Source of the DNA: Candidatus Levyibacteriota bacterium
Lineage (GTDB): Bacteria; Patescibacteriota; Microgenomatia; Levybacterales; UBA12049
Direction: 5' to 3'
Assembly: GCA_963790825.1 (NCBI GenBank)
Contig: CAWBPM010000002.1
Span: 295,159 to 359,158 of the forward strand
Length of the DNA stretch: 64,000 nucleotides
Shown here: positions 352 through 45,259 of the stretch, piece by piece
How the letters are laid out: each line of letters begins with the position of its first letter
How positions within the stretch are numbered: position 1 is the stretch's first letter
Made by a program: the position numbers and the translations under genes
The notes under the pieces: model-generated
What the model was told of the DNA's origin: nothing
Seen by the model: only the letters and a program-made list of their open reading frames with translations
Database searches by the model: none

Positions 352-660
352 TATATCTTATAAAAAACTACTTAACAAGACTTGATTAGCTATATATTTT
401 TTAAAGCTCTGCCTATGTTAGTAACTTAAATAAAAAATTAGTTGATATTAGGTAGAGTTTAATACCTAAATTTCGAGTATCTCGGATCGATGCCCACATT
501 TTGAGGCTAATTTTTAAGTGTACCCCTGGGTTACGCAATATCGAACACTTTTGGATTCATTCATTGAAACGTATAAACAACTTCATCGATATGTTCAAAT
601 CGTATCATATGTATAATTGTATAATTTCCTTCTTCCACCTGGGTATAGTATAATAACACT

Positions 661-1620
661 ATGGAAAATGTTACAAATTCAGGAGAACAAGTAGAAACTA
701 TAAAAAGCAAAGCTAGACATTTAGTTAAAGGCAGTTTAAGCAATAAAACTCTTGATTTAGCCGCTGTTCCCGAAATTATTGACGAAAATGGTCCATTTGA
801 TCCCCATAAAGAAATAACTAGTTCTGATTGGAATGCAATGCTTCATGGCTTACAAGAGTTTAAAAGTCGACAAAGTTCTTATTACCCCGAGCAGGCTGCA
901 TATATGGCTACTATTTTCCCAGAGAGTAAATCAATATTAGGATTTGACAAACATATGTGGGAAGCAACAAAAAAAAATACGGTAGAATATACTCAGGATA
1001 CCTTTACTGCCCTAGAATATGCACATTTTGCTGAACTATTAATGAGAATATTTCCGGAGCGAAGAGACGAATTATTGATTGATCAAATGTATCCACAATT
1101 ACAACATGCGTTAGACCATCTTACAAACCCAAACGAGCGAAGAATTCGAGCTCCATTACCATTAGCAACTTCTATGTTGAGACTGTTTCCTGACCGAAGA
1201 GAAGAAATATTAAATGGTAAAAAACCGCAATTATTAAAAGGGATAGGTAGTCACATAGCTGAGGAGGAAACAATGAATATAGCTAAATTTCGTCATCCAG
1301 ATATGGGAATTCATGCAAATGGAGATAATTTATCTGATGAGTTAGTAAGTGCAATGTATATATTCCCCGATCAGTTTGCTTCTTTGGATCTAAATAGTTT
1401 TTTATGGCGAGATATGAGATCTTCTTTACAAAATACACGAGATTTGCAGGCAATGCATTCTGGTTTGCTTTTATCTGACGAGTGGAAAAGATTTACTCAT
1501 CACGCTGCCAATATGACAGAACTTGCTAGAGGAAAAAGTGAGCTGGCATTGGGAATAAATCAAGAACCTCTTAATCCTACTCAAAAAATGCTTCCTGAAA
1601 AAACAAAGGACAAAATTTGA
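661..1620 (+). CDS. Hypothetical protein with internal IFPE(R/S) and LFPDRREE repeat motifs
   Basis: 319-aa ORF. Repeated motifs MATIFPESK, RIFPERRDELL, RLFPDRREEIL and YIFPDQFASL at regular spacing suggest an alpha-helical repeat protein. No recognisable catalytic motif. Confidence 0.5.
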   Translation: MENVTNSGEQVETIKSKARHLVKGSLSNKTLDLAAVPEIIDENGPFDPHKEITSSDWNAMLHGLQEFKSRQSSYYPEQAAYMATIFPESKSILGFDKHMWEATKKNTVEYTQDTFTALEYAHFAELLMRIFPERRDELLIDQMYPQLQHALDHLTNPNERRIRAPLPLATSMLRLFPDRREEILNGKKPQLLKGIGSHIAEEETMNIAKFRHPDMGIHANGDNLSDELVSAMYIFPDQFASLDLNSFLWRDMRSSLQNTRDLQAMHSGLLLSDEWKRFTHHAANMTELARGKSELALGINQEPLNPTQKMLPEKTKDKI

Positions 1621-1697
1621 CAAGAACCCTGAGGGGAGTCGAACTTTTTTAGCCTCAAATAATATCTTACAGTTGAAGATTATATAAATTTAGCCTC

Positions 1698-1790
1698 GTG
1701 TACCCCTGTTGTCCCACAGTTGGAACTCCACTCCTTCTGGAGAGCCTATTTCGGCTTACCTTAAAACTTCAGAGGTTTGGTTTTATTTAC
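1698..1790. repeat. ~93-bp direct repeat, copy 1, flanking the AbiE module
   Basis: Shares the cores tgtcccacagttggaac, cttaaaactt and tttggtttt(a/g)tttac with 3280-3370. About 70% identity across ~93 bp, same orientation. Confidence 0.6.
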
Positions 1791-1904
1791 TGTAACGGTA
1801 AGGTAATACCGCCGGAGGAGGCAATTATATGAATATCTTCTGTAGGGGACATTCTAAATCTATTATTGATAATATGCCTGTGTCTTCTTTATTATCGGAA
1901 ATAT

Positions 1905-2594
1905 CTATACTCTGCTTTTAAGATCAAACAACAGATCGCGGACTAATGTAGCTTTTATATGATCCTTTTGTTGGTTATTTAGTAACTCCCCAAGTCCTTC
2001 TAAAATTGTATTGGGATTTACTGTATTTTCTATAATATCAATAAGATCGGCAAAATATTCACTTGTATTTTTCCCAGTTCTCATCCTAACGATTTTCTCG
2101 TTAATTGGAAAATCCTTGACGAACATAAAATGCGCGTCATATAAATCTCTGTTTTGTAACTTTTTCCTATCGGTTATGGCGCATAGTTTATGAGCAAACA
2201 TACATTCCGGAGACAAAGTTGGAATAGTAATACCATAAAAATTTTTATTAATATATGTGTCAGGGTAATCACGCTTACTCATTTCTATTTTTACTCTCTG
2301 TTCCCCTTTTTCATAACTTCCTAACCAAAACCAAGTAAAATGTTTATTCACCTGGTCATCAATGATCAAATACTTCTTTATAATATTTGATACTGCTTCT
2401 TCAGGTAATGTTTCTGAAATGACATTAAAATCAAGATCAACGGAAAAACGATCTAATTCATAAAACATGTAGAGACACGTACCGCCTTTAAAAGCAAGTC
2501 TCCCTTGTAATTCAGGAGTCGTATATATATCTCGTAAAATATTTTTTAATATTTGTTCGTATTTCTTCCGATCTAACATATTATTTCTGTGCAT
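1905..2594 (-). CDS. abiEii: AbiEii/AbiGii-family nucleotidyltransferase toxin (type IV TA / abortive infection)
   Basis: 229 aa. The motif AFKGGTCLYMFYELDRFSVDLDFNV is characteristic of the DUF1814/AbiEii nucleotidyltransferase fold. Overlaps the upstream partner by 14 nt. Confidence 0.7.
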   Translation of the reverse strand: MHRNNMLDRKKYEQILKNILRDIYTTPELQGRLAFKGGTCLYMFYELDRFSVDLDFNVISETLPEEAVSNIIKKYLIIDDQVNKHFTWFWLGSYEKGEQRVKIEMSKRDYPDTYINKNFYGITIPTLSPECMFAHKLCAITDRKKLQNRDLYDAHFMFVKDFPINEKIVRMRTGKNTSEYFADLIDIIENTVNPNTILEGLGELLNNQQKDHIKATLVRDLLFDLKSRV

Positions 2595-3168
2595 TAATAA
2601 CTTTAATAAGTGCGTTCACTTCATTCTCTAATCTCTTATTTCCATAAATTTTTGATATCAGCGAAAGCTTTTCCGCGTCAACACCAAGAAGATTATCAAA
2701 ATAAAAACCGGGGAAGACGTATAAACAATCACAAATAGTTCGTTCTTTATCCGCTATAATGTATCTGCCATTATCGGTTAATCCTAGCTGAGAATAGAAG
2801 ATCGTTTCCTTAGCTTTATGATAGATATAATGTTGATCATTTATTGTATATTTTTTACTCCGTAAAGATATTGCATATATCGTTTCATAATATTGAAACG
2901 TTAATCCATGCATTTGGCTTGCGGTATATAAAGAAATATATGATAATGGAACAAGTTTTTGAACAATATCCAAGGGAGTGTAGTCTTGCCCATACGCGTA
3001 TACACCCTTAGAAATATGTAGTAGCCGCTTTTCTCTCAAGTAATATTTTATACGCTCAATGAGTTTTCTTCGTTCAGAAATTTTCCACAAAATTGATAAA
3101 TCTTCTATTGTAAATACCTTTTTCCCAGAAGTTGCCAATTTCTCTATATTTGTAGTTTGATGCTCCAT
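2581..3168 (-). CDS. abiEi: AbiEi-family antitoxin / transcriptional regulator
   Basis: 195 aa. Pairs with and overlaps the AbiEii gene. Has an N-terminal wHTH-like region and a C-terminal domain typical of AbiEi_4 proteins. Confidence 0.6.
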   Translation of the reverse strand: MEHQTTNIEKLATSGKKVFTIEDLSILWKISERRKLIERIKYYLREKRLLHISKGVYAYGQDYTPLDIVQKLVPLSYISLYTASQMHGLTFQYYETIYAISLRSKKYTINDQHYIYHKAKETIFYSQLGLTDNGRYIIADKERTICDCLYVFPGFYFDNLLGVDAEKLSLISKIYGNKRLENEVNALIKVINAQK

Positions 3169-3279
3169 AGGGTAGTATTCCTACCCTATACAATATCAAG
3201 TAGCTTTATAATTGTCAATATACATGTCGTGACTATCAATAATGACAAACTACTACCCTAATCTTACTATAGGTCTGTA

Positions 3280-3370
3280 GTACGCCTGCTGTCCCACAGT
3301 TGGAACCCCTAGCCTCCTTGACAGTCTAATTCATCTTAGCTTAAAACTTTAGGAATTTGGTTTTGTTTAC
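3280..3370. repeat. ~93-bp direct repeat, copy 2
   Basis: See the repeat at 1698-1790. Confidence 0.6.
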
Positions 3371-3383
3371 AACAAATATATTA

Positions 3384-3992
3384 TTACAAGTTACCTGTTA
3401 AAAACGTCCTGGGATTTACCGGTATTCCATAGGCGTTGATCTGAAAATGTAAATGCGGACCTGTGGCGTTGCCTGTCTCTCCTTCATAGCCGATAATGGT
3501 ATTTGTGTCAACAGTTGTTCCAACCTTTGTTGTAACTGCCTCCATATGGCCGTACAAGCTCGTTACATGACTTCCGTTGTCAATAACGACATAATTCCCA
3601 TATCCCAGGCTATCTTCTCCCGCAAACGTCACAGTACCTTTAGCAAACGGGTGTATCGGATCTCCTTGAAGGCCTTGTGGGTTGGCAATATCAATACCGG
3701 TGTGGAGTATCTGGTATGGAGGGTCGGGTTGTCCAAATTCAAGCGTCACGATACCCGTTGCGGGCCACGCCATTGACTCAGTAAAATCTGAGGTTGTCCC
3801 ATCTAAATTATGGATCTCAACCGTGTTAGTCGTGAGGTTGAGTGTGACGAGTTTGTCAGAAACGACTTGGAATCCAAAATTTGTTAATACGACTATACCG
3901 ATAATGGGAAGGAGAAGAATAAAAATAAAAACACCGGCAACAATTTTAAATTCAAAGCGATTGGAAAAAAGAGCGAATGCAACATATGGCAT
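3384..3992 (-). CDS. M23 family metallopeptidase with N-terminal TM anchor (T4SS-associated cell-wall hydrolase candidate)
   Basis: GNYVVIDNGSHVTSLYGHM...GETGNATGPHLHFQI is the LytM/M23 signature. A TM helix lies near the N-terminus. Sits immediately downstream of VirB4. Confidence 0.75.
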   Translation of the reverse strand: MPYVAFALFSNRFEFKIVAGVFIFILLLPIIGIVVLTNFGFQVVSDKLVTLNLTTNTVEIHNLDGTTSDFTESMAWPATGIVTLEFGQPDPPYQILHTGIDIANPQGLQGDPIHPFAKGTVTFAGEDSLGYGNYVVIDNGSHVTSLYGHMEAVTTKVGTTVDTNTIIGYEGETGNATGPHLHFQINAYGIPVNPRTFLTGNL

Positions 3993-3998
3993 GGTGTT

Positions 3999-5864
3999 TT
4001 ATATGTATATCTCCTTCGGATCGGTAGTTAAAAGCGGATGTTCTTTCTCCGATGCTACGACTTTGACGGCTACGTGATTCTGATCGGCAATGATTAACGC
4101 TTCGCCCCGCTCACAGGTTAGGAGAAATTGTGATTCGTATTCACTCAAATGAAATTCCTGTGTGACCTGTTTAATTGTTGTAGTGTCCTGGCGCATGAGG
4201 ATACGAAGGGAAGACTGACTGGCAATGGCTCTCCCATAATCTTGTTTGAGGAAATCCTGTGCCTGTTGGGAAATAATGGTGACTCCCAGGTAATATTTCC
4301 GTGCTCGTCGGACTAATCCGGCAATAAATCTGGCTGATTCAACGTGTTCCAAAAGCATCCAACCTTCATCTATCACGAGCATACGTTTTTGTGGATGAGA
4401 TTTCACCTGTGACTCAACAAAATTAGCAATGACCACCATCATAATTTGCCTGAGAGATTCATGAAGATCTTTTATATTGAAAACGATAAGACGATTCTCA
4501 AGTTGTATATTTGTCTGTTCATCAAAAACTGTCGATAGTGATCCTTTGACAAACCGTTCCAATCTATTGCAAATATCTTTTTGCTTCATTGTTTTAAGAG
4601 TTTTATATAAGTCTTTGACTAATGGGAATTCCTGGTGTTTTGCATTCATTTTTTTCTTTCCATTCATTGTGAAGCCAAATTCTTTGTAGGTCAGAAGTAT
4701 TGCCTTATCCATTACCGCCCGCTCTTCGGGAGAGAGTCCTTCAACCATAAGGGAAATAATTTCGGTAAGATTCTGAATATGTTCAGATAAAACATTTTCA
4801 CCATTTTGTGTAATAGAAAAATCAAAAGGATTTATTTTCTCCTTACTGGTAGCGGATAGTTTAATATACGTTCCCCTTACAGATTTTGCCAGTTGTTTGT
4901 ATTCCCGCTCAGGATCAATAACAATCACCTTTGTCCCCTGCATGAGCTGTCTGAGGATTTCAACTTTTGTGGTGTAACTTTTACCGGATCCGGATTGAGC
5001 AAAGATAATGGCATTGGCATTATTGAGTGAAAACCTGTCGACAATAACCAGCGAGTTATTTGATTTGTTAATGCCATAGAGTATTCCTGCCTCCTGCACA
5101 AGTTCTGAAGAGACAAAAGGAAAGGTTAGTGCGCCGGAGGAGCTGTCTAGATTTCGCCTCTGAGAGAGCAGGTTTTCTCCCCTCGGGAGTACCGATTGTA
5201 ACCCTTCAATCTGCTGGTAGATTGCGGTTTTTATATAAAACAACCTGGTTGCCATAACCGTTTCTAAAATCTTGGTGATTTTATTAAGTTCCGATACAGA
5301 GTCGGCAGTAATAGTCATGTAAATGGAAAACTGAAACAGCTTTTCTTTTCCCCGTTGAATATTGTTTTTAAGCAGAATTGCCGAATCCAGGGGATCGGTA
5401 ATTTCAGAACCAACTAACCGTCCGTTTTTAATCATCGCCCGTTTTGTTGCTTCAAGCTCAGTTATTTTTCTGTTCAGTTTTGGCAGAGCAAGGAGTGGAT
5501 CAACTTTTTCAATATGATAGGAGATGTCGATGTTGTAGTTAAAGTTGATAAGCATACTAAGCCATCCCGTACCGGCAACATAGGGAAACCCGCTGATAAA
5601 CAGTGTACGGACAAACTTTTCTCCCATTGACAAGTAACTGCTATTTTCCATCAGTCCCGAGTACGAAATTAAATCAATCTGGTCCTGTTCGCCGAAATTA
5701 AACTGAAATGATTTTTTCAATAATTCTTTTTTCTTGTTTTTGTATTGCAACTTTTTTTGCAAGCGTTTCATTGTCCTTTTTAAATGAATTCGCTTTGCGT
5801 TTTGCAGCGGTTGTAATGAAATATCGGTTAGATTAAACATATGATGTTTTAAGCAGCATATCAA
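3999..5864 (-). CDS. virB4: VirB4/TrbE/CagE-family T4SS ATPase, C-terminal part of a split gene
   Basis: Walker A FAQSGSGKSYTTK and a Walker B-like MLVIDEGWMLL. The conserved N-domain stretch LFISGFPYVAGTGWLSMLINF is present. Overlaps the upstream ORF by 32 nt in another frame. Confidence 0.8.
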   Translation of the reverse strand: MICCLKHHMFNLTDISLQPLQNAKRIHLKRTMKRLQKKLQYKNKKKELLKKSFQFNFGEQDQIDLISYSGLMENSSYLSMGEKFVRTLFISGFPYVAGTGWLSMLINFNYNIDISYHIEKVDPLLALPKLNRKITELEATKRAMIKNGRLVGSEITDPLDSAILLKNNIQRGKEKLFQFSIYMTITADSVSELNKITKILETVMATRLFYIKTAIYQQIEGLQSVLPRGENLLSQRRNLDSSSGALTFPFVSSELVQEAGILYGINKSNNSLVIVDRFSLNNANAIIFAQSGSGKSYTTKVEILRQLMQGTKVIVIDPEREYKQLAKSVRGTYIKLSATSKEKINPFDFSITQNGENVLSEHIQNLTEIISLMVEGLSPEERAVMDKAILLTYKEFGFTMNGKKKMNAKHQEFPLVKDLYKTLKTMKQKDICNRLERFVKGSLSTVFDEQTNIQLENRLIVFNIKDLHESLRQIMMVVIANFVESQVKSHPQKRMLVIDEGWMLLEHVESARFIAGLVRRARKYYLGVTIISQQAQDFLKQDYGRAIASQSSLRILMRQDTTTIKQVTQEFHLSEYESQFLLTCERGEALIIADQNHVAVKVVASEKEHPLLTTDPKEIYI

Positions 5865-12911: not shown

Positions 12912-13210
12912 GCCTGAGAGTATATCACATAACTTTAAATTACTAATTTATAACAAGTGTAGTTTACTACTTGATTTATTTTTTATTGAGTACTATCTTT
13001 ATTAACAAGACTTAAGAAAGTAATACTTTATCTTAGGTTGTTTGGTACAGATTGAACTTGACAGTCAATCTCTGCCTAAAAATCCCCGCATGTTTTAGAC
13101 AAAGCTCTTAAGTAAACAGAATATTATAGATTCTAAAAAGGTTTCGGGGCAGCCGGTATTATTTAGCTATACAAAGAATAGCATTAAGAATCCTAATATT
13201 TTCTAGTTTA

Positions 13211-13650: not shown

Positions 13651-14073
13651 TTAGTTTGTTTGTTTAATTTCATCAAACAAATAGGTTTCTCCTTTTGCAA
13701 AACCCAGTAACCCGACATGTAGAAAAAATCGTTTCCAATCATTCTCCCCGTCAGCACAGCCTACAATTTTATCCTTATTGTATTTAGCGCAACTGTAAGT
13801 ATTCTTAACGGCATTAAAAGAAATAATAAGTTTATAGTCCTGATTGAAAATATTTTTATAACTTAAACTTTTAATATCACCGTTATCTTTATAAGTAGAT
13901 AAGTCGGGATCGTAAAAGACTGAACACACAACCATTTTTCCTTCCTCATTTAATCCGTGAGATGAAACAAATACATTAAAAGGGAAAACATTAAGCTCAG
14001 GTCTTTCTTTTATCTCTAAACGGGTTGGCAAAAAAACAAACAAAGAATCTTTATCGATACTTATCATACCCAC
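13651..14073 (-). CDS. Hypothetical protein, tandem paralog B
   Basis: See 13211-13612. AT-rich pair. Confidence 0.5.
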   Translation of the reverse strand: MGMISIDKDSLFVFLPTRLEIKERPELNVFPFNVFVSSHGLNEEGKMVVCSVFYDPDLSTYKDNGDIKSLSYKNIFNQDYKLIISFNAVKNTYSCAKYNKDKIVGCADGENDWKRFFLHVGLLGFAKGETYLFDEIKQTN

Positions 14074-14445
14074 CTCCTTTCCAACAAAAAACCTCTCCTG
14101 AAAGAGAGGTATAATACAAAAAAATTGTTTACCAAATTTTCTTGGTCAAATCCGTCCCTTTCCAAGGGCTGGGTTTGGCACCGCTTAATAATTACCGGTT
14201 GCCGGGTGGGTCACTGAGCCAGAACTCTCGCCACCGCTCTTGATTAATTGTTAAGCCTATTAAATAACTTTTTAAAGGCTTTGTCAATAATTCAATACTA
14301 AGGAGTTGTTTAGGCTCTTCTAGGCAAGAGTCAAGCATTCTTTATTCTCAGTCAGTTAGTTGAACTCGCGGAATCGGTAAATGTCCAAAACAGCGAGACT
14401 AATTTTAATGCTTTTTGTAAAGCTTTCCCTTCTCCTTGTCCCAAA

Positions 14446-14499: not shown

Positions 14500-14892
14500 T
14501 TAGTTAATTCTTCTTGAGTTATTCATAATCCAATTACATATCTCCTCTATACCTATCTTTTTCGTTATAATTTCCAGAATGAATTTTTCTAATTCATTTT
14601 GAGATACCGTCAACTCAAACCCATTTTGTGCCAAAAAAATAATCATACTCACTGTTCCTGTACGCTTATTACCATCTATAAATGCATGGTTATTAACTAG
14701 CGAATATAGTAAGGCTGAAGCTTTTTCGAAAACAGAAGGATATAAATCTAGACCTGAGAAGGTTGTTTGAGGTCTAAATACTGCAGATTCAATTAAGGCT
14801 AGATCCCTTATTCCATGTGAACCACCATATCTATCAATTTGGTCCTCATGGATTAGAATAATTTGCTCAAGTGTTAAGTAAACAATATCCAC
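14500..14892 (-). CDS. doc: Doc (death-on-curing) family toxin, Fic-fold kinase
   Basis: Canonical Doc motif HAFIDGNKRTG. 130 aa. Immediately downstream of an AbrB-type antitoxin gene. Confidence 0.85.
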   Translation of the reverse strand: MDIVYLTLEQIILIHEDQIDRYGGSHGIRDLALIESAVFRPQTTFSGLDLYPSVFEKASALLYSLVNNHAFIDGNKRTGTVSMIIFLAQNGFELTVSQNELEKFILEIITKKIGIEEICNWIMNNSRRIN

Positions 14893-18924: not shown

Positions 18925-19377
18925 TAAGAAGGGGATGCTTATGGGGATTGGTTTTTTATTTAAAGATAAATTTAACTTTGTTCTGAAGGATTACTGTCAT
19001 TTGATTGGTTATCTGTATAGCCTAGTCTGTATAAATCACCCCTAACGTGGCCTGGTCCACTATAATTTGAAGGTGAATATCCGCTATATTGATTACGCGG
19101 GCTAGGAGGTGTATATTTTGTTTCTGCCTTAAATGCCAGGTAAAATAAATGTCTAACTTTCCCAATAACCCTTTGGAACATCGGTGATTCTTTACTCACA
19201 ACTGTATTATACTCCCGGGAGTCAAATTTTTTAAAGTCACAAACGAGTATTCTCCTCTAAAAACCCATTCAGTTTCTCTGCACAAGAATCAAGATGAATA
19301 TCCTTTTTATCAACAATTTTGTGCAGACAATTATTTGTTTAGTTTTGCTAATCAGTTGGCTAAGTATAATAATTGAA

Positions 19378-19947
19378 TTATTTTGTAGTTGCAGGGACAA
19401 GTGGATGTCTAAAAATAGTCTCTGCGTTTAACATGTGCCCCGCAGGCGTTCTGCCTGTCAGATACATTCTTACAGTTTCCGGCCAATCTATTCTTTTGGG
19501 GAAACGTGAATCGTCAACTTTGTCGAAAAAGTGAGTATAACGTTTTGCGAGATTTGGATGTAACCGAGTGGGTAAGTAACTTAATCCTGAAGTTACCTTG
19601 ATAGTATCATCATATTGGTAAGCGGCTATACCTCTCATCTTAGTTTCTAGATCAACAAGATTACCTGATTCATCGCACTGGACCACCATATCAACCAGTC
19701 TGGTAGAAAATCCAAACACTTGACTTTTTCCCCATTTAATTCCTGGTCGAATTCTAACATTTAGCTCATATAATCCATTACCTCTGCCATATTTACGAGA
19801 GTATGCTTCAAGTAAAAATTCCCCTTGTTGGGTGTAATACAGGTGAGGATCTTCAAAAGTACCCATAGAAGTACTTTCTGCTTGAAGATCTACGTAATTA
19901 AATGACTCTCTTAATCTAGGCATAAATATCTGGGTATTATAGCACAT
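19378..19947 (-). CDS. Hypothetical protein
   Basis: 189-aa ORF with good coding appearance. No motif recognised. Confidence 0.45.
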   Translation of the reverse strand: MCYNTQIFMPRLRESFNYVDLQAESTSMGTFEDPHLYYTQQGEFLLEAYSRKYGRGNGLYELNVRIRPGIKWGKSQVFGFSTRLVDMVVQCDESGNLVDLETKMRGIAAYQYDDTIKVTSGLSYLPTRLHPNLAKRYTHFFDKVDDSRFPKRIDWPETVRMYLTGRTPAGHMLNAETIFRHPLVPATTK

Positions 19948-20581: not shown

Positions 20582-21382
20582 TTATTCTACTTTTTCCCAA
20601 ACATCAGGGGTTTTAGCATTAAGTATTCTCTCATTCCAGGATAAATATAGAGGGAATGGTTCATCAAATTGTTTTTCAAATAGTGCTTTTGCAAAGTAAT
20701 ACAGGTGTTTCTTTAACTTTTCTCTTGGGCAAATAAATAAAACTGCGGGGAACGCTTGCCCGTTTGCGTTGTCCTCCCAATTACCTCCCTCAACATATTG
20801 CATGTATGTTAATATCCGTGAACGAAGTATTCCGGCAGAAGCATAGTCTCTGAATAATTCAAGGAAATATCTTCTGGTTTTCTCTTTTGTTTTTACTGAT
20901 ATATAAGCACTTGGCAGGGGAGTAGGAAAATACTCATATTGCAGCAATTGGCTTTCAGTAAAAAAACGGATCTCTTCATCTTTTTTCTTCTTTGCTAAAA
21001 AGAAAAGATAAACATCTGCTAAGTCTAGACAGTAAGAAATAAAACTTTCTGTCCGACTCTTTTCTTTGTACACTTTACCCAGTGCTTCAACGTCGCAGTC
21101 CTTTTCCTGTTTTAGGATTTGTATTCCTTTAGTACCCAGAAAATAGACAGCCGGCTTTGTCCGGTTTTTAAATGAATCAGGCAGATAATATCTGTGAATA
21201 TACTTATTATCTTTTAAGTCTTTAAGCCAGAGTTGTATTCTTTTGGGGTTTTTATGATTGAATAATATTTGCAGTTGGTTAGTATTTAGGAATCTGAATT
21301 TATATATATATTTTAATATTTGTTTTTCTTTGCCGGTTATTTTAACTTCTGTTTTGTTCTCTGTTTTTATTATTTTTTTCAT
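20582..21382 (-). CDS. Replication-relaxation (Replic_Relax, PF13814-like) family wHTH protein
   Basis: N-terminal EKQILKYIYKFRFLNTNQLQILF matches the wHTH start typical of Replic_Relax proteins. Lies immediately downstream of the VirD4-like gene, as in Gram-positive conjugative elements. Confidence 0.45.
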   Translation of the reverse strand: MKKIIKTENKTEVKITGKEKQILKYIYKFRFLNTNQLQILFNHKNPKRIQLWLKDLKDNKYIHRYYLPDSFKNRTKPAVYFLGTKGIQILKQEKDCDVEALGKVYKEKSRTESFISYCLDLADVYLFFLAKKKKDEEIRFFTESQLLQYEYFPTPLPSAYISVKTKEKTRRYFLELFRDYASAGILRSRILTYMQYVEGGNWEDNANGQAFPAVLFICPREKLKKHLYYFAKALFEKQFDEPFPLYLSWNERILNAKTPDVWEKVE

Positions 21383-21490: not shown

Positions 21491-24196
21491 CTATTTTATC
21501 TGCTTCGTATCATCGGGAAGTGACCCTGTTATTTTATTTTTTGTCTCCGTAGTTTCTTTCTGTCTTGCTGCTTGCTGCTCTTTATTGACCGGTTTTTTCA
21601 GGTAGACAATTGCCCAGTTATTTCTCGAAGATGCAATGAGTTTCTCCATCTTTTTACTATCTCTTTTGACGGGCATATAGATTGTCTCACCGGAAAAAGG
21701 TTCTTCGGATTCTATGGCTGAAATTTTAATATAGAATCTGTAACGGGGAAGACTCATTATTTCGCCCTTTACTAAGTAGGGCGCAAACTGGTTAAGCATT
21801 AAATCTTCATCAATATAATTGCCGGACCGGAATGAGATAACTGTGGTAACGTTTGCCAGGATAATATTGGTAACATCCCTGTCTTTTTGCTGGGAGGTTG
21901 ACTGCTCGGCAATAATTAAAGGCATCCTGTACTTTCTGCCCTCTGTTATCATTTTTGTAAATGACTGGGTTGCAAAATTTTGGAATTCGTCAACATATAC
22001 ATAAAATGTTTTCCTCTTGCTCTCCGGTATATATGCTCTTTTTAATGCAGCTTGCTGGAGTTTGGTCATGATTGTTGTTCCCATGAGCCGTGAGGAGTCT
22101 TCACCTAATTTTTGTGAGAAATTACAAATGAGAATTTTACCGCCGTTTATAATTTCATCAAAATTAATAGTGGATTTCTCCTGTTCTAAAATTCTTTTAG
22201 CAGTAGGAGAGCGGAGAAACCTTCCAACCTTGGCTGTAATCCCCTGAGTCATTTTTACTATCTGATAATCTCCGGCTTTGCCGAATTCATATTTCCAGAA
22301 ATCTACTAAATCCTCATCCGTCAGTTTTGACACAACCTGTTTGCGAAAGGTAGGATTAGTCATGATTTTATTGATGGTAAATAATGTTGCGCCCGGTACA
22401 GTAAACGCTGTGTAAATAGTATTTCTTAAAATATATTCAATTCTGTGAGCATTAGTACTCTCATCTTTTGAAAATACTTTTCTGAAAAGCGACACTACAC
22501 CTTCTGCAACTACCTCTTTTTCCAGCTCCGCTTCGTCTTCATCGAGTCCGGGTGTCAACTCCATGACGTTTATTCCGATCGGATACTTTAAGTCTATCGG
22601 GTTAATATATATGAGATCGTCTTTCCGGCTTGTCGGAATAGAAGCCACTAAATCTTCTGCTACATCTCCATGCGGATCAATAAATGCTAAACCGCGGCCT
22701 TCTTCAATATCATGTTTTGCCATGGAAAACATTAAGGTAGTTTTACCTGAACCGGTTCGGCCTAAAATATACATATGCGTTTGCCGCTCTTCTTCGGTTA
22801 ATCCGATCGGCGTTGTTACTCCCGCATAATTATTTTCTCCAAAAACAGTATCCAGCTCCGTACCGTTTTTTAGTGTTATTGGGGCGGGTAATTCTTTTGA
22901 ATGTGCTTTTACAATGTTTTCCGTTTGCGTAACATACTTAAAAGGAAAATGATATAGGTCTGCTATCTCAGACGCGGAATATAATGAGGAACTTGCATTG
23001 TTAATTAAAGATAACATTCGTTTTCGAAACACAAATAGTTGTACCCGATCCGAGACATATGGAATTCCATATGTTTTGAAGAAGGACTGATATTTAGGAA
23101 CGTTATACATAGCAAGGGAGGAATGAAAACCTTTAACCCTCTGTGCAACTTCAGACTTTTCCTTCATAACAACTAGTAACCTGATTGATCCTTCAAACAA
23201 CTCCTGATCAATTTTTGTTTTGATTGACTGGATCACTTCCTGCTCAAAGCTACTTAGTATCCTAGCCGGCCGAAGGTGCTGCATTTGTATAACTTGCTGA
23301 TACTGGTATTGCCCGGAAATATGTATCGACTGTGTGTTTGAATGCATCAGCTCAGTTATTGCCCACTGCAGATTATTTCCGATTGCCAATATCATTTTAA
23401 GTAATACTTTTAGAAGGAATAACAATATTTTTACAACTAAAGGTGCTCGGGGTTTACTTAAATACCTTAGTATATCTTCATTGTTGAGGATCATCTGAGA
23501 AAGAATATCCGCTTCTTTGATTTTGGTTCCGGAAACTACTACTTGCAAAGAGATTAATTCTCCGGGTTTTAACTGCGTCATCATACCGGTGATATACGCA
23601 ACCGGATCATGTTCCTGCAGAGTGGATTGTTTTTGCAGAGGAAAAGCAAAATGTTTTCTTAATTGAAACCCGGCAACTTTTATATGCAATTTATTATTAG
23701 TTTTATCAACAGTGGGAATATATTCACTAGTTGTTTTCACCAGGACATGGGGAAGGTAGGAGAGAATCTCCCGTTTTATGTTCTCTTTTTCTTCCGGTGT
23801 TGTCCTGACAATGAAACGGATTCCCAGCTCTCTGCTTGAAACAATTTCGAAAGAAAGAATCGTTTTCCTGCCCAGTAATTTATCTGTAAACGAATCCCGC
23901 TTTGATAAGCCGTGTATCATTGAAAAAAATTCCTGCGTGGTATATGCAGACTTTTCGCTTATTGTCGGAGGGGTAATTTCAAGCAGAACCGATTCTTCAT
24001 TCATTAGTTTTCTGAAATTGAAATACCAGCGGGCAATTAGTATTACCAGCACACATACGACAAGAAAAAGAATAAAAGGAAAGGATGAGAAAGGAGAGTG
24101 ATGAGCAAAGTTAATAAACTCATCTTTTAAATGAGGAAGAGAGGCAGTTAACCGGCTAAGTATATATCCAGCTTCCCAATGATGCCAGTCATTCAT
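21491..24196 (-). CDS. virD4: Type IV coupling protein (VirD4/TraG/TraD family) with a long N-terminal membrane-anchored extension
   Basis: Walker A ILGRTGSGKTTLMF, Walker B FYVYVDEFQNFAT and an N-terminal TM helix. 901 aa. Confidence 0.8.
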   Translation of the reverse strand: MNDWHHWEAGYILSRLTASLPHLKDEFINFAHHSPFSSFPFILFLVVCVLVILIARWYFNFRKLMNEESVLLEITPPTISEKSAYTTQEFFSMIHGLSKRDSFTDKLLGRKTILSFEIVSSRELGIRFIVRTTPEEKENIKREILSYLPHVLVKTTSEYIPTVDKTNNKLHIKVAGFQLRKHFAFPLQKQSTLQEHDPVAYITGMMTQLKPGELISLQVVVSGTKIKEADILSQMILNNEDILRYLSKPRAPLVVKILLFLLKVLLKMILAIGNNLQWAITELMHSNTQSIHISGQYQYQQVIQMQHLRPARILSSFEQEVIQSIKTKIDQELFEGSIRLLVVMKEKSEVAQRVKGFHSSLAMYNVPKYQSFFKTYGIPYVSDRVQLFVFRKRMLSLINNASSSLYSASEIADLYHFPFKYVTQTENIVKAHSKELPAPITLKNGTELDTVFGENNYAGVTTPIGLTEEERQTHMYILGRTGSGKTTLMFSMAKHDIEEGRGLAFIDPHGDVAEDLVASIPTSRKDDLIYINPIDLKYPIGINVMELTPGLDEDEAELEKEVVAEGVVSLFRKVFSKDESTNAHRIEYILRNTIYTAFTVPGATLFTINKIMTNPTFRKQVVSKLTDEDLVDFWKYEFGKAGDYQIVKMTQGITAKVGRFLRSPTAKRILEQEKSTINFDEIINGGKILICNFSQKLGEDSSRLMGTTIMTKLQQAALKRAYIPESKRKTFYVYVDEFQNFATQSFTKMITEGRKYRMPLIIAEQSTSQQKDRDVTNIILANVTTVISFRSGNYIDEDLMLNQFAPYLVKGEIMSLPRYRFYIKISAIESEEPFSGETIYMPVKRDSKKMEKLIASSRNNWAIVYLKKPVNKEQQAARQKETTETKNKITGSLPDDTKQIK

Positions 24197-24382: not shown

Positions 24383-24652
24383 CTATACCTGCTGCTTTGG
24401 CGGCAATGTACCTGAAGTAGTAGTAACAAAAGGAATAGTTGCTGTACCTTGTGTATTTACGGATGAAGTTCCAGAAGTATTAGTTTGTACTTGTCCCACT
24501 CCTGATACGACATTTGTTTGTGCCCCACTAGGTTTTGCGAACAACGGGCTTACAGGTACTTGTGATCTGTTACTTGTATTGATCGTTGCGACATTGAGAG
24601 TAGGAAGTCCTGCAAATAATTTTGTAGAATCGTCAGAGTACCCCAACCGCAC
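24383..24652 (-). CDS. Hypothetical Ser/Thr-rich small protein
   Basis: 89-aa ORF of low complexity. Weak support. Confidence 0.2.
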   Translation of the reverse strand: MRLGYSDDSTKLFAGLPTLNVATINTSNRSQVPVSPLFAKPSGAQTNVVSGVGQVQTNTSGTSSVNTQGTATIPFVTTTSGTLPPKQQV

Positions 24653-24826
24653 TTTCTATCGAACCGCTTTTAGCTTGGCTAACCAAGTTAATGGATGTAT
24701 ACCAGAAAACTATAGAGTTAAATTAAAAAATCTTTCGTAGTGTTTATTCTTCAGTTCAATTGACATTACAAAATACATAATCTAATCTATAGATAGAAGA
24801 ATATTCAGTAAGAGTTATAAAAACAT

Positions 24827-25177: not shown

Positions 25178-25761
25178 TTAATAAAAAGCTTTTGCATTTT
25201 CTTAATTTCTCCCCACCTCTGCCTCAGCTCTCTAATATATCAAAATCCTAGTTAGCCAAAATAATCTACTTTCATTGGCTATAACGATACATTAGAGGCA
25301 ACTGAGGTTAAACTTTATACGTGATGTTTATGCCAAATAACGAAAATTTGTCTGTTTTTAGGGAATAGACTCTTAGCTCTCTGGTTCGAATCCCTTTTGG
25401 TTGTCAAAAGAGTTTAAGCTAACGAACTCGACCTAGGATTTATATCTTTGAAATTAAGATTGGTTTGTTCTATCAATCTATTCTCGCATTTGCAAACACG
25501 AGCGACCCGTTTGGTACCCCTGATGCACTTTCTTTTGAGCTCTTTCTGCCTTGTATTAACAAAATTAGGGTCGTTTATCAAGAATCCGAATCTATCGATA
25601 GTGATCAATTATTACCCCAGGATACTTCTTTCTTTAGGGGATATTATGTGAAGAATATGAATTAAAGAATTATTTATTTTAAGCACAGGCTGGCTGTTTC
25701 AGATTTCCCGAACTTTTGAACCTATTTAAAAGCACTCAGGGAGCGTGCTTCACCTGAATAA

Positions 25762-26022
25762 CTACTTTGCAACTCCTTCAAAAATCAGCTGTTTAATAAA
25801 AGTTTGATAAGGTACATCCATCTGATGCGCCTTTATTTTAACTCGATCAATTAATGTTTGTGGTAAGCGGATTGTAATAGGCTTACTGGTTAACTTTAAA
25901 TTAGGAAATTTCCAATTCTCAACATGACTATAGTCTACATACTCTGTAGAATCATGAGTCTGCCAAAATTTTCTTTCTTCATCTTCATTATTAAATTTAG
26001 GAATTTGCTTTAATTGTTTCAT
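25762..26022 (-). CDS. brnA: BrnA-type antitoxin (RHH/CopG-like)
   Basis: FNNEDEERKFWQTHDSTEYVDYS...PITIRLPQTLIDRVKIKAHQMDVPYQTFIKQLI matches the BrnA family. 4-nt gap to brnT. Confidence 0.75.
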   Translation of the reverse strand: MKQLKQIPKFNNEDEERKFWQTHDSTEYVDYSHVENWKFPNLKLTSKPITIRLPQTLIDRVKIKAHQMDVPYQTFIKQLIFEGVAK

Positions 26023-26026
26023 ATAT

Positions 26027-26320
26027 TTATCCTTCTTTGTACACCTCCATTTCTTTTTTGTTAGCTCCTCTTCCTGAGATTATTCTAATTTTATCTTTCC
26101 TGATGGCAAATACTACAAAAAGCATTTTATTTTCTGTAGTTTTTCCTATTGCAATGAAACGCTCTTCCTGTTCTTGATGTTTGAAATCTTTTTTTATCTT
26201 AACATCTTCGTCTAAAAATACTTCTTCCGTTTCATTTGGAGCTATACCATGTTTTTTATAGCTTTTATCTATATTCCACTTATCCCATTCAAATCCAAAA
26301 ATAGCATTCAAATCAATCAT
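26027..26320 (-). CDS. brnT: BrnT-type ribonuclease toxin (DUF497)
   Basis: FEWDKWNIDKSYKKHGIAPNETEEVF...IRIISGRGANKKEMEVY matches BrnT/DUF497. Confidence 0.8.
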   Translation of the reverse strand: MIDLNAIFGFEWDKWNIDKSYKKHGIAPNETEEVFLDEDVKIKKDFKHQEQEERFIAIGKTTENKMLFVVFAIRKDKIRIISGRGANKKEMEVYKEG

Positions 26321-26476
26321 CTGTACATATGATACATGTACAATAGTCGCATGTCAATAGCTAAAATTATCGCTTTAGCCTCTGCTGATCATAGTAAAGT
26401 ATTCGAGTCGCCTCAGGGTTCAAACATTCTTAAGTCTAACAAAGGTGAGATTATTTTTGAAGATTAATTAGCAATT

Positions 26477-26557
26477 TAGCCCGTTCTATCAATCTATTCG
26501 TATGTTTGATACTGTAGGCGTCCCCTTTGGTACCCCCTATGGGACGATGTCCGAACC
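26477..26557. repeat. tRNA-Leu-flank-derived element, copy B
   Basis: Shares tagcccgtt(c/a)tatcaatctattcg...cgtcccctttggtacc with 47652-47716 (the native tRNA-Leu 3-prime flank) and, more loosely, with 25465-25522. It adds the motif tggtaccccctatgggacgatgtccgaacc, which recurs at 44768-44797 and 45157-45186. Confidence 0.55.
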
Positions 26558-26643: not shown

Positions 26644-27102
26644 GTGATAATGTCGTATTTTAACAAATTATTAGCCGTAAAAGAAGCGATAGATGTCTCA
26701 AAACTATATAACGAAAAGACGTTTTATAAGGCTTTTATTAAAGACTTAGAGAGAGTAAGAAATGAGGTAATTATTGAATCTCCATTTATTACCATTGAAC
26801 GGGTAAAATATTTTATACCGATATTTACTAAGCTAATAAAAAAAGGTGTACAAATTCATGTGTATACTCGTATAGCTGAAGAACAATCTGACGAAATGCA
26901 GTATCAAACTGAAAAGGGAATAGATCTACTAGAAGAGATTGGCGTTTTTGTTGTACCAGTGAATTGTTTTCTGCATAGGAAGTTAGCTATTATTGATAAC
27001 AATATAGTATGGGAGGGAAGTTTGAATATCTTATCGCAGAGAAACAGTCAAGAATTCATGCAAAGACTCAATAATCAATCAGAAGTAATCAAAATTGTAT
27101 AG
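26644..27102 (+). CDS. Phospholipase D-like (HKD) domain nuclease, Nuc-like
   Basis: The single HxK(x)4D motif HRKLAIIDNNIVWEGSLNI indicates a homodimeric single-HKD nuclease. Paralog of 46376-46825 (about 45% identity). Confidence 0.7.
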   Translation: MIMSYFNKLLAVKEAIDVSKLYNEKTFYKAFIKDLERVRNEVIIESPFITIERVKYFIPIFTKLIKKGVQIHVYTRIAEEQSDEMQYQTEKGIDLLEEIGVFVVPVNCFLHRKLAIIDNNIVWEGSLNILSQRNSQEFMQRLNNQSEVIKIV

Positions 27103-27130: not shown

Positions 27131-27412
27131 TTAATTTAATGTCGCATTTTCTTCCTTAACTTTTTCTGCCAAAAACATCTTAACTAAAGACTGATAAGGT
27201 ACATCACGTTTATTCGCAATAGTTTTGAGTGATGCAACTAACCATTCCGGAAGTCTGATTGAGACAGTTTTAGTTGAAGGCTTAAGTTTTAAGAATACAG
27301 GGTTAACAATAGCCGAACTGGCATCAAAATAGTCAAGCAAGTCATGGTTTGACCAGAACTCTCTTTCTTCATCTTCATTTTTAAACTCTGGTAATTGTTT
27401 GAGATTGCTCAT
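27131..27412 (-). CDS. brnA: BrnA-type antitoxin, second copy
   Basis: FKNEDEEREFWSNHDLLDYFD...VSIRLPEWLVASLKTIANKRDVPYQSLVKMFL. Confidence 0.75.
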   Translation of the reverse strand: MSNLKQLPEFKNEDEEREFWSNHDLLDYFDASSAIVNPVFLKLKPSTKTVSIRLPEWLVASLKTIANKRDVPYQSLVKMFLAEKVKEENATLN

Positions 27413-27424
27413 AATTTATTATAT

Positions 27425-27772
27425 TCACCTCTTTTCTGCTTTTTTCTCTTGTTCTTCTTGCGCTATATATAATGCTCTTCCTTTTTTACTCATATCCCAG
27501 GAAGCTATAACTCTGATTTTGTTATTTCTTATTGTAAAATAGATTTCAAGTCTTCTTCCTGCATCCGTTTTTCCAAGTATACCGAATCGTCGCTCATCAA
27601 GCGTTGAGTGTTTTGGATCTTTTAAGAAAATGAGTGGTTTATTAAAAAACACTTCCTCACTTTCTCTGGGTTCTGTATGATGTTTCTCCCTATTTTTAAT
27701 GATATTTACATCATTCCACTCAAAACCTTCTATATTCGCAAGATCATCCAGATCGAAATCATCTACGCTCAT
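27425..27772 (-). CDS. brnT: BrnT-type toxin, second copy
   Basis: FEWNDVNIIKNREKHHTEPRESEEVF...IRVIASWDMSKKGRALY. Confidence 0.8.
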   Translation of the reverse strand: MSVDDFDLDDLANIEGFEWNDVNIIKNREKHHTEPRESEEVFFNKPLIFLKDPKHSTLDERRFGILGKTDAGRRLEIYFTIRNNKIRVIASWDMSKKGRALYIAQEEQEKKAEKR

Positions 27773-29572: not shown

Positions 29573-29837
29573 TTTTAGTATTACTTATCTCTCTTTAGAA
29601 GTCAAACTATGCCTATAACGATAAATTGTCGGCATATGTTAAACAGGATTATGTATAAGTTTATACCAAATAACGGAAAGTCTGCGTTTCATGGTCACAA
29701 TATATTTAATACCAAAATTCCCCCAAAAGGGACTCGAACCTAAAATCGAGGGAAAATAGAGAAAACTGAGCCTAAAACTTACTTAGGTTCGAGCGTCCCA
29801 TACGGGTTGTTAAATTTCGAGGCTGTTTTTAAGGTGT

Positions 29838-29910
29838 ACCCCTGGAGGGATTCGAACCCCCGACCTTGTCGTTAGAACCGACCAGCTCTATCCTCTGAGC
29901 TACAGGGGCG
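29838..29910 (-). tRNA. tRNA-Arg (anticodon TCT)
   Basis: Manual cloverleaf fold: acceptor GCCCCTG/CAGGGGT (G1-U72), D-stem GCTC/GAGC, anticodon loop GTTCTAA, T-arm GGGGG-TTCGAAT-CCCTC. CCA is not encoded. Confidence 0.8.
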
Positions 29911-43930: not shown

Positions 43931-44027
43931 TATTTACATTATTGCACAAAATTAGGTGAATACAAGTATAAAAGACAGGATTTATATATTGGATAACCTT
44001 TTCTTTTATAAAGCTAACTGAGTAAAG

Positions 44028-44101
44028 TCGGGGACAAAGGACTTGAACCTTCGACCTCGCGGTCCCAAACCGCGCGCTCTAGCCAACTGAGCTAGTCCCC
44101 G
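44028..44101 (-). tRNA. tRNA-Pro (anticodon TGG)
   Basis: Acceptor CGGGGAC/GTCCCCG (C1-G72 is typical for Pro), D-arm GCTC-AGTTGGCTA-GAGC, anticodon stem CGCGG/CCGCG with loop TTTGGGA, T-arm GAAGG-TTCAAGT-CCTTT. Confidence 0.85.
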
Positions 44102-44227: not shown

Positions 44228-44674
44228 TCACCGGGTCCTCGGAAGAGTCCGCTTATAATAATCGTGTATCGCTATTTTATAAACCTTTCTACGTTGCTCT
44301 TCCGTCAGCGAGGTAAAATTTCGGGTATACCTTTCGGGTACCGGTAAATATTCAAATTCACCTTTAATAAGATCAGCTTCTTGAGTAGCAGCATCATTAA
44401 TTTCCACTCTGAAAAGAGCACCAGGTTTTCGCTGTGTTTCCTGAATATATTCACTACTAATAATAAAAGTATTACCAAGGGTTTCATTAGATAAAAAGGG
44501 GAAAGATACGATTGTCATGCCGTCTGACTGATTTTCTTTGGACCCAAAAGATATTATAGTAGCTACAGTAGGCCACCTACGCTCAGGCCGCTGGGGTAAC
44601 GGTTCTACGCGAGAAACCCCACCAGCAGAATTTCTAAAACCAGAGCTCTCAAGTTCTTTTGCTAATATAGCCAT
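44228..44674 (-). CDS. Hypothetical protein
   Basis: 148-aa ORF with good coding appearance. Confidence 0.4.
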   Translation of the reverse strand: MAILAKELESSGFRNSAGGVSRVEPLPQRPERRWPTVATIISFGSKENQSDGMTIVSFPFLSNETLGNTFIISSEYIQETQRKPGALFRVEINDAATQEADLIKGEFEYLPVPERYTRNFTSLTEEQRRKVYKIAIHDYYKRTLPRTR

Positions 44675-44879
44675 TAGTATTAATATTATTAAAGTTATAT
44701 AAGTATAAAATTAAAGGAGGGTATGAAAATTGTAATATTTTGAGGAGTAATTATTTACCAAGACATCTGGTACCCCCTATGGGACGATATTCGAACCCAT
44801 ATTCAATAACTTGGTCCTACAGAAAAAGAGTTTATGTTGAAAAATATTAAATGAGGGAAACTATGAAGAAATGTGTATA

Positions 44880-45080: not shown

Positions 45081-45259
45081 GTTTTGATTATGGTATACGA
45101 TATTTTAAATGTCAATAGAAGAGTTTTGAAAACCCAAATATATTATAGGTCTTGGTACCCCATATGGAACGATGTCCGAACCTACGTAGCCTCACTTGAG
45201 TCTAAAGAAAAGACCGAATTGTTGCTAATTCTACAAAAAAATAAAACGGGATAAATCTA

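Follow-up and report, generated by a model that had tools for sequence, protein, structure and literature searches.

How does a two-gene defence operon come to lie between two copies of a sequence that belongs neither to the operon nor to any coding frame? This question is raised by a 64,000-nt stretch of DNA from a Candidatus Levyibacteriota bacterium (assembly GCA_963790825.1, contig CAWBPM010000002.1, positions 295,159 to 359,158; hereafter the window), in which an AbiEi/AbiEii toxin-antitoxin (TA) and abortive-infection module is flanked by a pair of direct repeats. We observe directly the repeats, the motif family to which they belong and its bias to one strand, the reassortment of arms at a fixed junction, the identity of the tRNA-Arg involved, and comparable arrangements in two other loci, L014 and L002. 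We propose, giving the proposal an even chance of being right, that the repeats are attachment (att)-type junctions of an integrase-less AbiE mini-island that forms part of a tandem series at tRNA-Arg(TCT).

The AbiE module lies between two diverged direct repeats

The features at the centre of this question are the following.

1700 to 1790, minus strand: repeat A, an att-like site downstream of the module, 114 nt past the abiEii stop
1905 to 2594, minus strand: abiEii, an open reading frame (ORF) of 229 aa, member of the DUF1814 nucleotidyltransferase toxin family (PF08843 and PADLOC PDLC02324)
2581 to 3168, minus strand: abiEi, 195 aa, antitoxin and autorepressor by family (PADLOC PDLC02255, full length)
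3169 to 3218, minus strand: predicted AbiE promoter and operator, with a -35 box TTGACA at 3218-3213 and an extended -10 box TATTGT at 3195-3190
3280 to 3370, minus strand: repeat B, an att-like site upstream on the coding strand, beginning 13 nt past the stop codon of an M23 peptidase gene; left-arm class gamma

A repeat search of the first 8 kb returned a single two-copy family of 91 nt (1700-1790 and 3280-3370), whose members align without gaps at 79% identity, are spaced 1580 nt apart and match each other by BLAST at E = 2e-17. The 17-nt core TGTCCCACAGTTGGAAC occurs exactly twice in the 64 kb, against 0.04 occurrences expected, and the 3′ block containing the 10-nt core CTTAAAACTT also occurs twice, against none expected. 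A chance origin of the repeats is excluded, and the initial annotation, which had described copies of about 93 bp with perfect cores of 17 and 10 nt around AbiE, is confirmed. Its statement that the repeats bracket the module exactly goes too far: repeat A and the abiEii stop are 114 nt apart, and 111 nt separate repeat B from the start of abiEi.

Several familiar identities for such a sequence were considered and rejected. The repeats are not a coding remnant, as stops or missing starts occur in all six frames. Neither are they a structured RNA or a tRNA pseudogene: Rfam gave no match in 1500-3500 even at E <= 10, ARAGORN called no tRNA at the repeats, folding of either strand as RNA or single-stranded DNA was no better than that of shuffles (z from -0.9 to +1.5), and a five-member alignment of the elements held no more than 10 pairs, all weak, and had a covariation term of -0.12. 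On the plus strand, TTTAC stands at the end of both repeats, which recalls the insertion of IS200/IS605-type elements after TTAC; no transposase and no matching end structure are present here. Finally, repeat B does not appear to be native sequence downstream of the M23 gene, since a BLAST extension into the corresponding region of a related locus, L004, was not above shuffled controls.

The full 91-nt sequence has no extra copies in the window or in the 18 loci fetched for comparison. A composite pattern of the two cores had no matches in genome and viral contig collections, and a 21-nt core had one match in a metagenome contig collection, which is unrelated and coding. The search for the element elsewhere that the initial annotation had recommended thus left the 91-nt unit confined to these two positions, but a 27-nt core within it recurs at other sites.

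Both repeats end in a motif that mimics the 3′ end of tRNA-Arg(TCT)

A T-loop-like sequence, GTTCCAAC, is present inside both repeats, and on the minus strand both copies share the 3′ end GTTCCAACTGTGGGACA(A/G)CAGG(G/C)GTAC. Repeat A terminates in the acceptor 3′ end of tRNA-Arg, CAGGGGTAC; repeat B has CAGGCGTAC in its place, with one mismatch. A motif of the form GTTCSA-N12-CAGGSGTAC, searched across the window, had four matches at up to one mismatch, all of them exact, against 0 expected, and nine at up to three mismatches, against 1.9 expected. All nine are intergenic and lie on the minus strand; together with the tRNA and a related fragment they are listed here.

470 to 546, minus strand: region of the outermost motif site (520-546), with a right arm homologous to the tRNA-Arg 3′ flank (class 1)
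1624 to 1656, minus strand: GAGGCTAAAAAAGTTCGACTCCCCTCAGGGTTC, a tRNA-3′-end-like fragment of a second class, with true tRNA spacing
1700 to 1726, minus strand: core motif of repeat A, GTTCCAACTGTGGGACAACAGGGGTAC; its last 11 nt and the two bases that follow give CAGGGGTACAC, the same as the tRNA-Arg(TCT) 3′ end
3280 to 3306, minus strand: core motif of repeat B, GTTCCAACTGTGGGACAGCAGGCGTAC, composed of a T-loop-like GTTCCA, 12 nt and a 9-mer like the tRNA-Arg acceptor 3′ end (model R1, E = 1e-5)
24638 to 24664, minus strand: motif site with left arm beta
25514 to 25540, minus strand: motif site with left arm beta and right arm class 3
26530 to 26556, minus strand: motif site with left arm alpha and right arm class 3, upstream of a BrnT/BrnA-like pair
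29836 to 29909, minus strand: tRNA-Arg(TCT), whose 3′ end CAGGGGTAC(AC) is the shared junction sequence; presumed primary attachment site
44770 to 44796, minus strand: motif site with left arm alpha
45155 to 45181, minus strand: motif site with left arm alpha, just downstream of a Fic-HTH_17 gene
46286 to 46312, minus strand: motif site with left arm beta, 88 nt upstream of the Fic-HTH_17 gene

Copies of the motif are also found in the relatives L002 and L014. A sequence model built from 11 motif sites (R1) recovers all of its own sites at E = 8e-8 to 4e-5 and detected one new site, in L014, at E = 1.4e-3. The final CAGGGGTAC(AC) of the motif corresponds to the 3′ acceptor strand of tRNA-Arg(TCT), its discriminator base and the first flanking bases, and the GTTCGA at the other end of the motif resembles the T-loop of the same tRNA. 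The relation to the tRNA reaches beyond the motif at the outermost site: the tRNA-Arg 3′ end and flank (29814-29909) reappear 29.3 kb away at 529-498, with 84% identity over 32 nt (E = 4e-4) and a similarity that extends weakly to about 50 nt.

The tRNA connection had been touched on in the initial annotation, which remarked in passing that T-arm-like tRNA fragments adjoin each repeat. This aside turned out to be the key clue to the identity of the repeats, although only part of it stands: the fragment GGGGAGTCGAAC is present at 1633-1644, within the second-class fragment listed above, but such a separate fragment lies near repeat A only. The second-class sequence GTTCGACTCCCCTCAGGGTTC is found at 1624-1656 (minus strand), at 26401-26421 (plus strand) and in another locus, L012, at 3508-3535; it matches no tRNA in the window and is preceded in two places by GAGGCTAAAAA. 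The L012 motif, 24 nt long and nearly identical, has an IS200-type (Y1) transposase gene at a distance of about 100 nt. Associated with this class of fragment is an octamer, GAGGCTAA/TTAGCCTC, which is repeated in either orientation around 500-1700 and 26380.

Some motif sites mark off small units of their own. Those at 44770-46312 delimit single genes, namely the Fic-HTH_17 gene (45260-46198), a gene for a 66-aa membrane protein (44880-45080) and one for a 148-aa protein of unknown function (44228-44674); this series stops just before tRNA-Pro (44027-44101) and has the look of a small array of cassettes located elsewhere than downstream of tRNA-Arg. Around the site at 26530, two paralogous BrnT/BrnA-like pairs (25762-26320 and 27131-27772, assigned by similarity of the translations only) flank a gene for a nuclease of the PLD family (26644-27102). 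This gene has a paralogue at 46376-46825, and each of the two PLD genes has a motif site on the opposite strand 64-88 nt upstream.

Arms reassort at a fixed junction

In an all-versus-all comparison, pairwise homology between sites took one of two forms: it either stopped no more than 3 nt past the motif (left-arm homology), or it started at CAGGGGTAC and ran downstream (right-arm homology). Homology between pairs ends at, or starts within, the last ~12 nt of the motif. The 90-nt left and right arms of 14 sites were then scored separately against shuffles. Four left-arm classes emerged: alpha (26530, 44770, 45155, the L002 site L002a and the L014 site L014d), which is well conserved across three genomes; beta (24638, 25514, 46286 and a second L002 site, L002b); gamma (repeats A and B); and, as the fourth, the tRNA body itself. 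Right arms fall into three classes: class 1 is the tRNA flank and is found at both tRNAs, in L014d and at site 520, class 2 in L002a and L002b, and class 3 at 25514 and 26530.

These classes combine freely. The alpha arm is joined to right-arm class 1 in L014d, to class 2 in L002a and to class 3 at 26530, while beta is joined to class 2 in L002b and to class 3 at 25514. The AbiE repeats behave in the same manner, as the left arms of A and B are alike at z = 31.7 and their right arms are not (z = -1.3). We read this free combination of arms as the mark of exchange at a short core that the sites have in common, as seen in att sites of related elements after serial integration. Target duplication by insertion of the cassette was rejected for this reason, since a reassortment of flanks at a fixed 9-nt junction points to site-specific recombination. 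The same observation favours att-like site-specific recombination over the homologous recombination between repeat copies that had been suggested as an alternative to insertion, and for which we find no indication.

Comparable islands in L014 and L002

Two other loci carry islands with junctions of the same kind. L014 comes from a patescibacterial genome whose AbiEii is 77% identical to that of the window and in which tRNA-Arg(TCT) (3205-3278) lies directly upstream of abiEi. There, within 3205-5640, a 2.2-kb abiEi-abiEii-brnT-brnA block without an integrase is flanked by a 109-nt direct repeat of 87% identity, one copy of which is the tRNA 3′ end and its flank and the other an alpha-class motif site followed by the same flank. 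Because tRNA-Gly(TCC) is found 1.2-1.6 kb upstream of tRNA-Arg in both L014 and the window, the attachment region is syntenic. L014 provides a second integrase-less TA island at this tRNA, in another genome.

In L002, which shares with the window a type IV secretion system (T4SS) locus, a 6.4-kb block between two motif sites carries a gene for a large serine recombinase of 510 aa together with GmrSD and small genes. The recombinase gene overlaps the first motif site with its 3′ end, and each site is followed by a 180-nt repeat of this 3′ end (96% identity), which at the second begins right after GGGTAC; sites and repeats fall in 12919-13119 and 19339-19539. The 6.4-kb block looks like a live island beside the stump of a decayed one. 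L002 and L004 belong to the same assembly, GCA_027459745.1, which has two complete T4SS operons with M23 proteins 78% and 70% identical to that of the window; the two T4SS copies have different neighbourhoods, both by metal-resistance genes.

The AbiE operon is an acquired module at a variable locus

Whether the repeats delimit a mobile unit depends in part on what lies between them. The identification of the two genes as an AbiE pair is borne out by PADLOC matches for both and a Pfam match for AbiEii. AbiEi matches PDLC02255 at E = 2.6e-36 over residues 8-189; it has no Pfam match at E <= 0.01, the AbiEi_4 family being reached at a relaxed cut-off with a sub-threshold E = 0.012 (16.1 bits against a cut-off of 25), and the NCBIfam model TAA_AbiEi aligns with its N-terminal part only, under the cut-off. 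AbiEii matches PF08843 at E = 2.2e-23 (83.9 bits against a cut-off of 22.5) and PDLC02324 at E = 1.4e-55, and its translation holds GGTCLYMFYELDRFSVDLDF, which reads as the G[GS]...DxD motif of pol-beta-type nucleotidyltransferases. Homologues of AbiEii are 224-225 aa long and cover residues 6-229 of the window ORF; since they align from residue 6, the true start is probably the ATG at 2579. The two frames overlap by 14 nt, or stand 1 nt apart if abiEii begins at the sixth codon.

Upstream of abiEi, the predicted promoter matches the consensus at 10 of 12 positions and has the TG of an extended -10 element (TTGACA, 17 nt, then TG-TATTGT). An inverted repeat, ATAGGGTAGGAATACTACCCT, lies at 3189-3169, directly against the abiEi ATG. 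Both the TTGACA and this inverted repeat between the -10 box and the ATG, of the form TAGGGTAG-N5-CTACCCTA, are invariant in four AbiE loci, a conservation consistent with AbiEi autoregulation and with the inverted repeat as a putative operator. In characterized AbiE systems, AbiEi represses its own promoter and neutralises AbiEii (PMC3985639), and relatives of AbiEii are described in two reports (PMC7450476, PMC10435456) as nucleotidyltransferases that block translation by modifying tRNA acceptor ends. The window operon shares with the AbiE system of Dy et al. 2014 (PMC3985639) a bicistronic arrangement with the antitoxin first, a DUF1814 toxin and an inverted repeat in the promoter; it differs in that AbiEi is short (195 aa) and below the Pfam and NCBIfam thresholds, in having one operator-like inverted repeat, and in being known from sequence. 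The operon is best read as an intact, horizontally acquired type IV TA and abortive-infection module with its own promoter and the antitoxin gene first. As a module it is ordinary.

The surroundings of the operon agree with the initial description of it as an inserted defence cassette, which we uphold on four grounds: its absence from five relatives, its presence in other contexts elsewhere, its low G+C content and the ORFan next to it. In 1-kb windows, the G+C content is 31% over the cassette and 37-40% on either side, within a range of about 31-45% for the whole stretch. Proteins encoded nearby are matched best by those of Microgenomates-type lineages (Shapirobacteria, Daviesbacteria, Levybacteria). 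On the right, the M23 gene closes a conserved patescibacterial T4SS operon that encodes pilins, VirB6/TrbL-like, PrgI-like and TraC-like proteins, VirB4 and M23. Both AbiE and the repeat are missing here from the five closest relatives of this T4SS/M23 locus (M23 70-79% identical); their regions downstream of M23 are not alignable, and the accessory genes found there are a TM2/HTH/PLD-nuclease set, a PIN toxin pair, a serine recombinase, GmrSD and an IS200-type transposase. As to the comparison with relatives that the initial annotation had called for, on the presence or absence of AbiE between single copies of the repeat, AbiE is absent from all five and so is the site, and no single-copy (empty) site was found among them. 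To the left of AbiE, a 319-aa gene (661-1620, plus strand) has no homologue among 5.8 billion proteins (ORFan) and no family match; it contains an internal 135-nt repeat (1043-1087, 1178-1222).

Outside this locus, the AbiE cassette of about 1.3 kb is found in at least seven other genomic contexts, and close AbiEii homologues (65-85% identity) are very common in Patescibacteria in unrelated contexts. DNA homology between the window and three other AbiE loci, L005, L006 and L007, runs from window position 3228, 3199 or 3195, at about the -35 box, to 1902-1917, at the end of abiEii. Because it is limited to 3228-1902 and falls short of both repeats, we rejected the idea that the repeat is part of the AbiE cassette. 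Direct repeats flank AbiE in three of eight homologous loci (the window, L007 and L014), with sequences unrelated between loci, so that flanking repeats were also rejected as a general property of the cassette. In L007, the cassette sits between two paralogous T4SS pilin genes, with a perfect 27-nt direct repeat, AAATTTTTTGAGGGGTTGACAAGGTTT, on either side (3368-3394 and 4675-4701); this repeat contains a -35 box, and its downstream copy is apparently the promoter of the next pilin gene.

The initial annotation had held that the repeats would amount to a fortuitous duplication if they were unique to these two positions and if AbiE occurred without them in relatives. The 91-nt unit is indeed confined to them and AbiE is found elsewhere without it, and yet the duplication is not fortuitous, as the repeat belongs to a wider motif family.

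A proposed integrase-less mini-island

In the arrangement that we propose, the AbiE mini-island would measure 1.6 kb, with the two repeats as analogues of attL and attR, and would be one unit in an accreted series downstream of tRNA-Arg(TCT). Each junction would consist of a left arm, representing the distal end of the preceding island, a 27-nt mimic of tRNA-Arg from T-loop to acceptor end, and a crossover point within or next to CAGGGGTAC. An AbiE circle carrying a gamma-class att site may have entered the distal att site of an element that was already resident and related to it, and it is because of such an event that repeats A and B would share their left arm and differ in their right arms. 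Recombination of A with B would, in turn, let AbiE leave as a circle with one repeat, while one hybrid copy stays behind. The recombinase would be supplied in trans. Because the recombinase of L002 abuts a motif site, a large serine recombinase of this CcrB/DsiB-like type is the leading candidate. We infer, then, that the junction is a recombinase crossover site, that an enzyme of this kind may act on it and that the AbiE island may be mobile at present.

A number of findings weigh against this proposal. By Pfam, no recombinase or integrase domain was found in any of the window ORFs scanned, which were most of those of at least 120 aa between coordinates 1 and ~47.5 kb, nor in the 556-aa neighbour on the left; the latter gene, which starts at 331 on the minus strand, has no Pfam or PHROG match and no similarity to the L002 recombinase. 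A tblastn search with that recombinase returned only a 32-aa tail match, which is not significant and falls at the motif site at 26.5 kb. Neither an empty site nor a circular junction was found, and L001, the one further copy of the locus, is identical. Given the lack of a recombinase in the scanned ORFs and of an empty site, the current mobility of the island is a matter of inference. With 79% identity between the copies and a longest perfect block of 17 nt, the sites may be decayed by now if the island was once mobile. Large serine recombinases normally need no long arms, which leaves the 64-nt shared left arm without an assigned role. Five of the eight homologous AbiE loci lack a flanking repeat, so that the repeats belong to the site and not to the cassette. 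The motif family is seen in three genomes only (window, L002 and L014). The spacer of the motif is 12 nt long compared with 7 in the tRNA, which makes the motif sites mimics of a tRNA end and not simply displaced tRNA ends. Lastly, the three motif sites at 44.8-46.3 kb are on the 5′ side of tRNA-Arg, and an array at a single tRNA therefore does not cover everything.

Alternative explanations

Several of these points are accommodated if the att sites are fossils, that is, if the junctions were formed as proposed above but the island is now fixed and its repeats are inactive. We regard this explanation as possible, though less probable than an island with working junctions. It is consistent with the 21% divergence between the copies, with the lack of a recombinase gene in the scanned part of the window and with the identical arrangement in L001. 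Set against these are the retention of the motif core in both copies and the conservation of the alpha class between genomes whose M23 proteins are ~78% identical, which suggests constraint or recent transfer. The fossil explanation differs from the mini-island proposal in present activity alone, a point that sequence by itself cannot settle.

A local event that involved no site-specific system is an unlikely explanation. Here, sequence downstream of M23 would have been duplicated at an illegitimate or homology-facilitated insertion of AbiE, or two related T4SS-linked elements would have recombined, and the copies would have drifted to 79% identity. This identity does resemble the DNA divergence of M23 3′ ends between relatives (74-79%), the full 91-nt sequence is present only twice in the window and was not found elsewhere, one relative genome has two T4SS clusters, and the perfect 27-nt repeat around the L007 cassette is made of local promoter sequence. 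However, the repeat ends carry a motif common to seven other sites and to tRNA-Arg, and a local event explains neither why homology stops exactly at this motif nor the strand bias of the family. Moreover, no trace of a second M23 3′ end is found beside repeat A, and repeat B resembles the spacers downstream of M23 in relatives no more than shuffled sequence does.

We think it equally unlikely, if more far-reaching, that the 27-nt motif belongs to a lineage-wide cassette-exchange system in Microgenomates-type Patescibacteria, in which one recombinase acting in trans would shuffle single-operon defence and TA cassettes (AbiE, BrnT/BrnA, Fic, PLD-nuclease and GmrSD) among sites not all of which are by a tRNA. 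Such a system would amount to integron-like exchange of defence genes without an integron, perhaps driven by a CcrB/DsiB-like enzyme. In a more remote variant, the tRNA-acceptor mimic would also serve as a substrate or decoy for the AbiEii nucleotidyltransferase.

The least probable explanation is that the repeats have nothing to do with recombination and punctuate accessory operons as cis-acting or RNA elements, for instance as small RNAs, terminators, protein-binding sites or processing signals resembling tRNA. The nine motif copies do share their strand with neighbouring genes, most of them are followed after 75-210 nt by the start codon of a minus-strand gene, conservation of the alpha class is good, and a tRNA-end mimic beside AbiE is suggestive in view of the action of AbiEii-family toxins on tRNA acceptor ends described in PMC7450476 and PMC10435456, but the Rfam, folding and covariation results given above offer no support, arm reassortment at a fixed junction is unexpected for an RNA gene, repeat A has no downstream gene on its strand, and the motif flanks non-AbiE genes too.

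The wider accessory region

The 29.3-kb interval from the site at 520 to tRNA-Arg holds the T4SS operon, a VirD4-type coupling protein gene (21491-24196), a Replic_Relax protein gene (20582-21382) and several TA and defence genes. The stretch from 0.5 to 29.8 kb may be one large integrated or conjugative element, or it may consist of islands stacked around a chromosomal T4SS. The T4SS genes, the coupling protein and the Replic_Relax protein speak for a single conjugative element; against it stand the lack of an integrase in the scanned ORFs and the report that patescibacterial T4SS loci are mostly chromosomal and relaxase-less (PMC12102498). The accessory region also contains an S-adenosylmethionine (SAM) riboswitch (Rfam RF00162 at 49.7 bits; 14145-14249, minus strand), which has downstream of it an ORF of 140 aa (13651-14073) without a Pfam match and adjoins a Fic/DOC gene (14500-14892).

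Comparison with known systems

The architecture of the window is an example in candidate phyla radiation (CPR) bacteria of a known kind, tandem tRNA-associated islands with units like cis-mobilizable elements (CIMEs). CIMEs and tandem accretion at the att sites of integrative and conjugative or integrative and mobilizable elements have been described (Pavlovic 2004; Bellanger 2011) and reviewed (PMC5704250). As in those elements, the AbiE unit is a small block without integrase or transfer genes that has att-like direct repeats and stands in tandem with related sites, neighbours sharing one arm. Unlike the case of CIMEs, no partner element or integrase is identified in the window region, the sites are only 79% alike and mobility is putative.

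In Dehalococcoides, tandem ssrA islands are delimited by many repeats of the tmRNA 3′ end, and a gene for a CcrB-like integrase always overlaps attL (PMC3146451). The same study reports a further conserved motif upstream of the repeat and interprets integrase-less units as cis-mobilizable elements. The parallels with these DsiB islands are close: in both cases, repeats of a small-RNA 3′ end downstream of the gene delimit accessory islands, some units lack an integrase, an extra upstream motif does not align with the RNA gene, and the 3′ end of a recombinase gene overlaps the att site (here in L002). The differences are that the target is tRNA-Arg(TCT) and not tmRNA, that the cargo consists of TA and defence genes, that the junction is at the extreme 3′ end and not in the T-loop, that the sites are far more diverged, and that three motif sites are upstream of the tRNA (44.8-46.3 kb).

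With integron attC arrays, the window shares short, diverse sites on one strand between single-operon cassettes, a cargo of TA genes, which is typical there, and a crossover, here a presumed one, at one end of the site. In contrast to integrons, it has no attC-type hairpin or R''/R' core and no integron integrase or attI, and its sites resemble the end of a tRNA. The RYYYAAC/GTTRRRY ends of attC sites were not seen in the element sequences, which places these elements outside attC.

Implications

Patescibacteria have tiny genomes, and little is known of how they gain and lose defence genes. The window, together with L014 and L002, gives a testable picture in which small integrase-less defence and TA cassettes appear stacked at tRNA-Arg and at look-alike sites. 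The junction GTTCGA-N12-CAGGGGTAC could serve to find such islands in other genomes, and the variable region beside the conserved patescibacterial T4SS operon emerges as a place where defence cargo lands. Should the sites prove active, they would also offer a simple recombination system to try for the manipulation of these hard-to-engineer bacteria.

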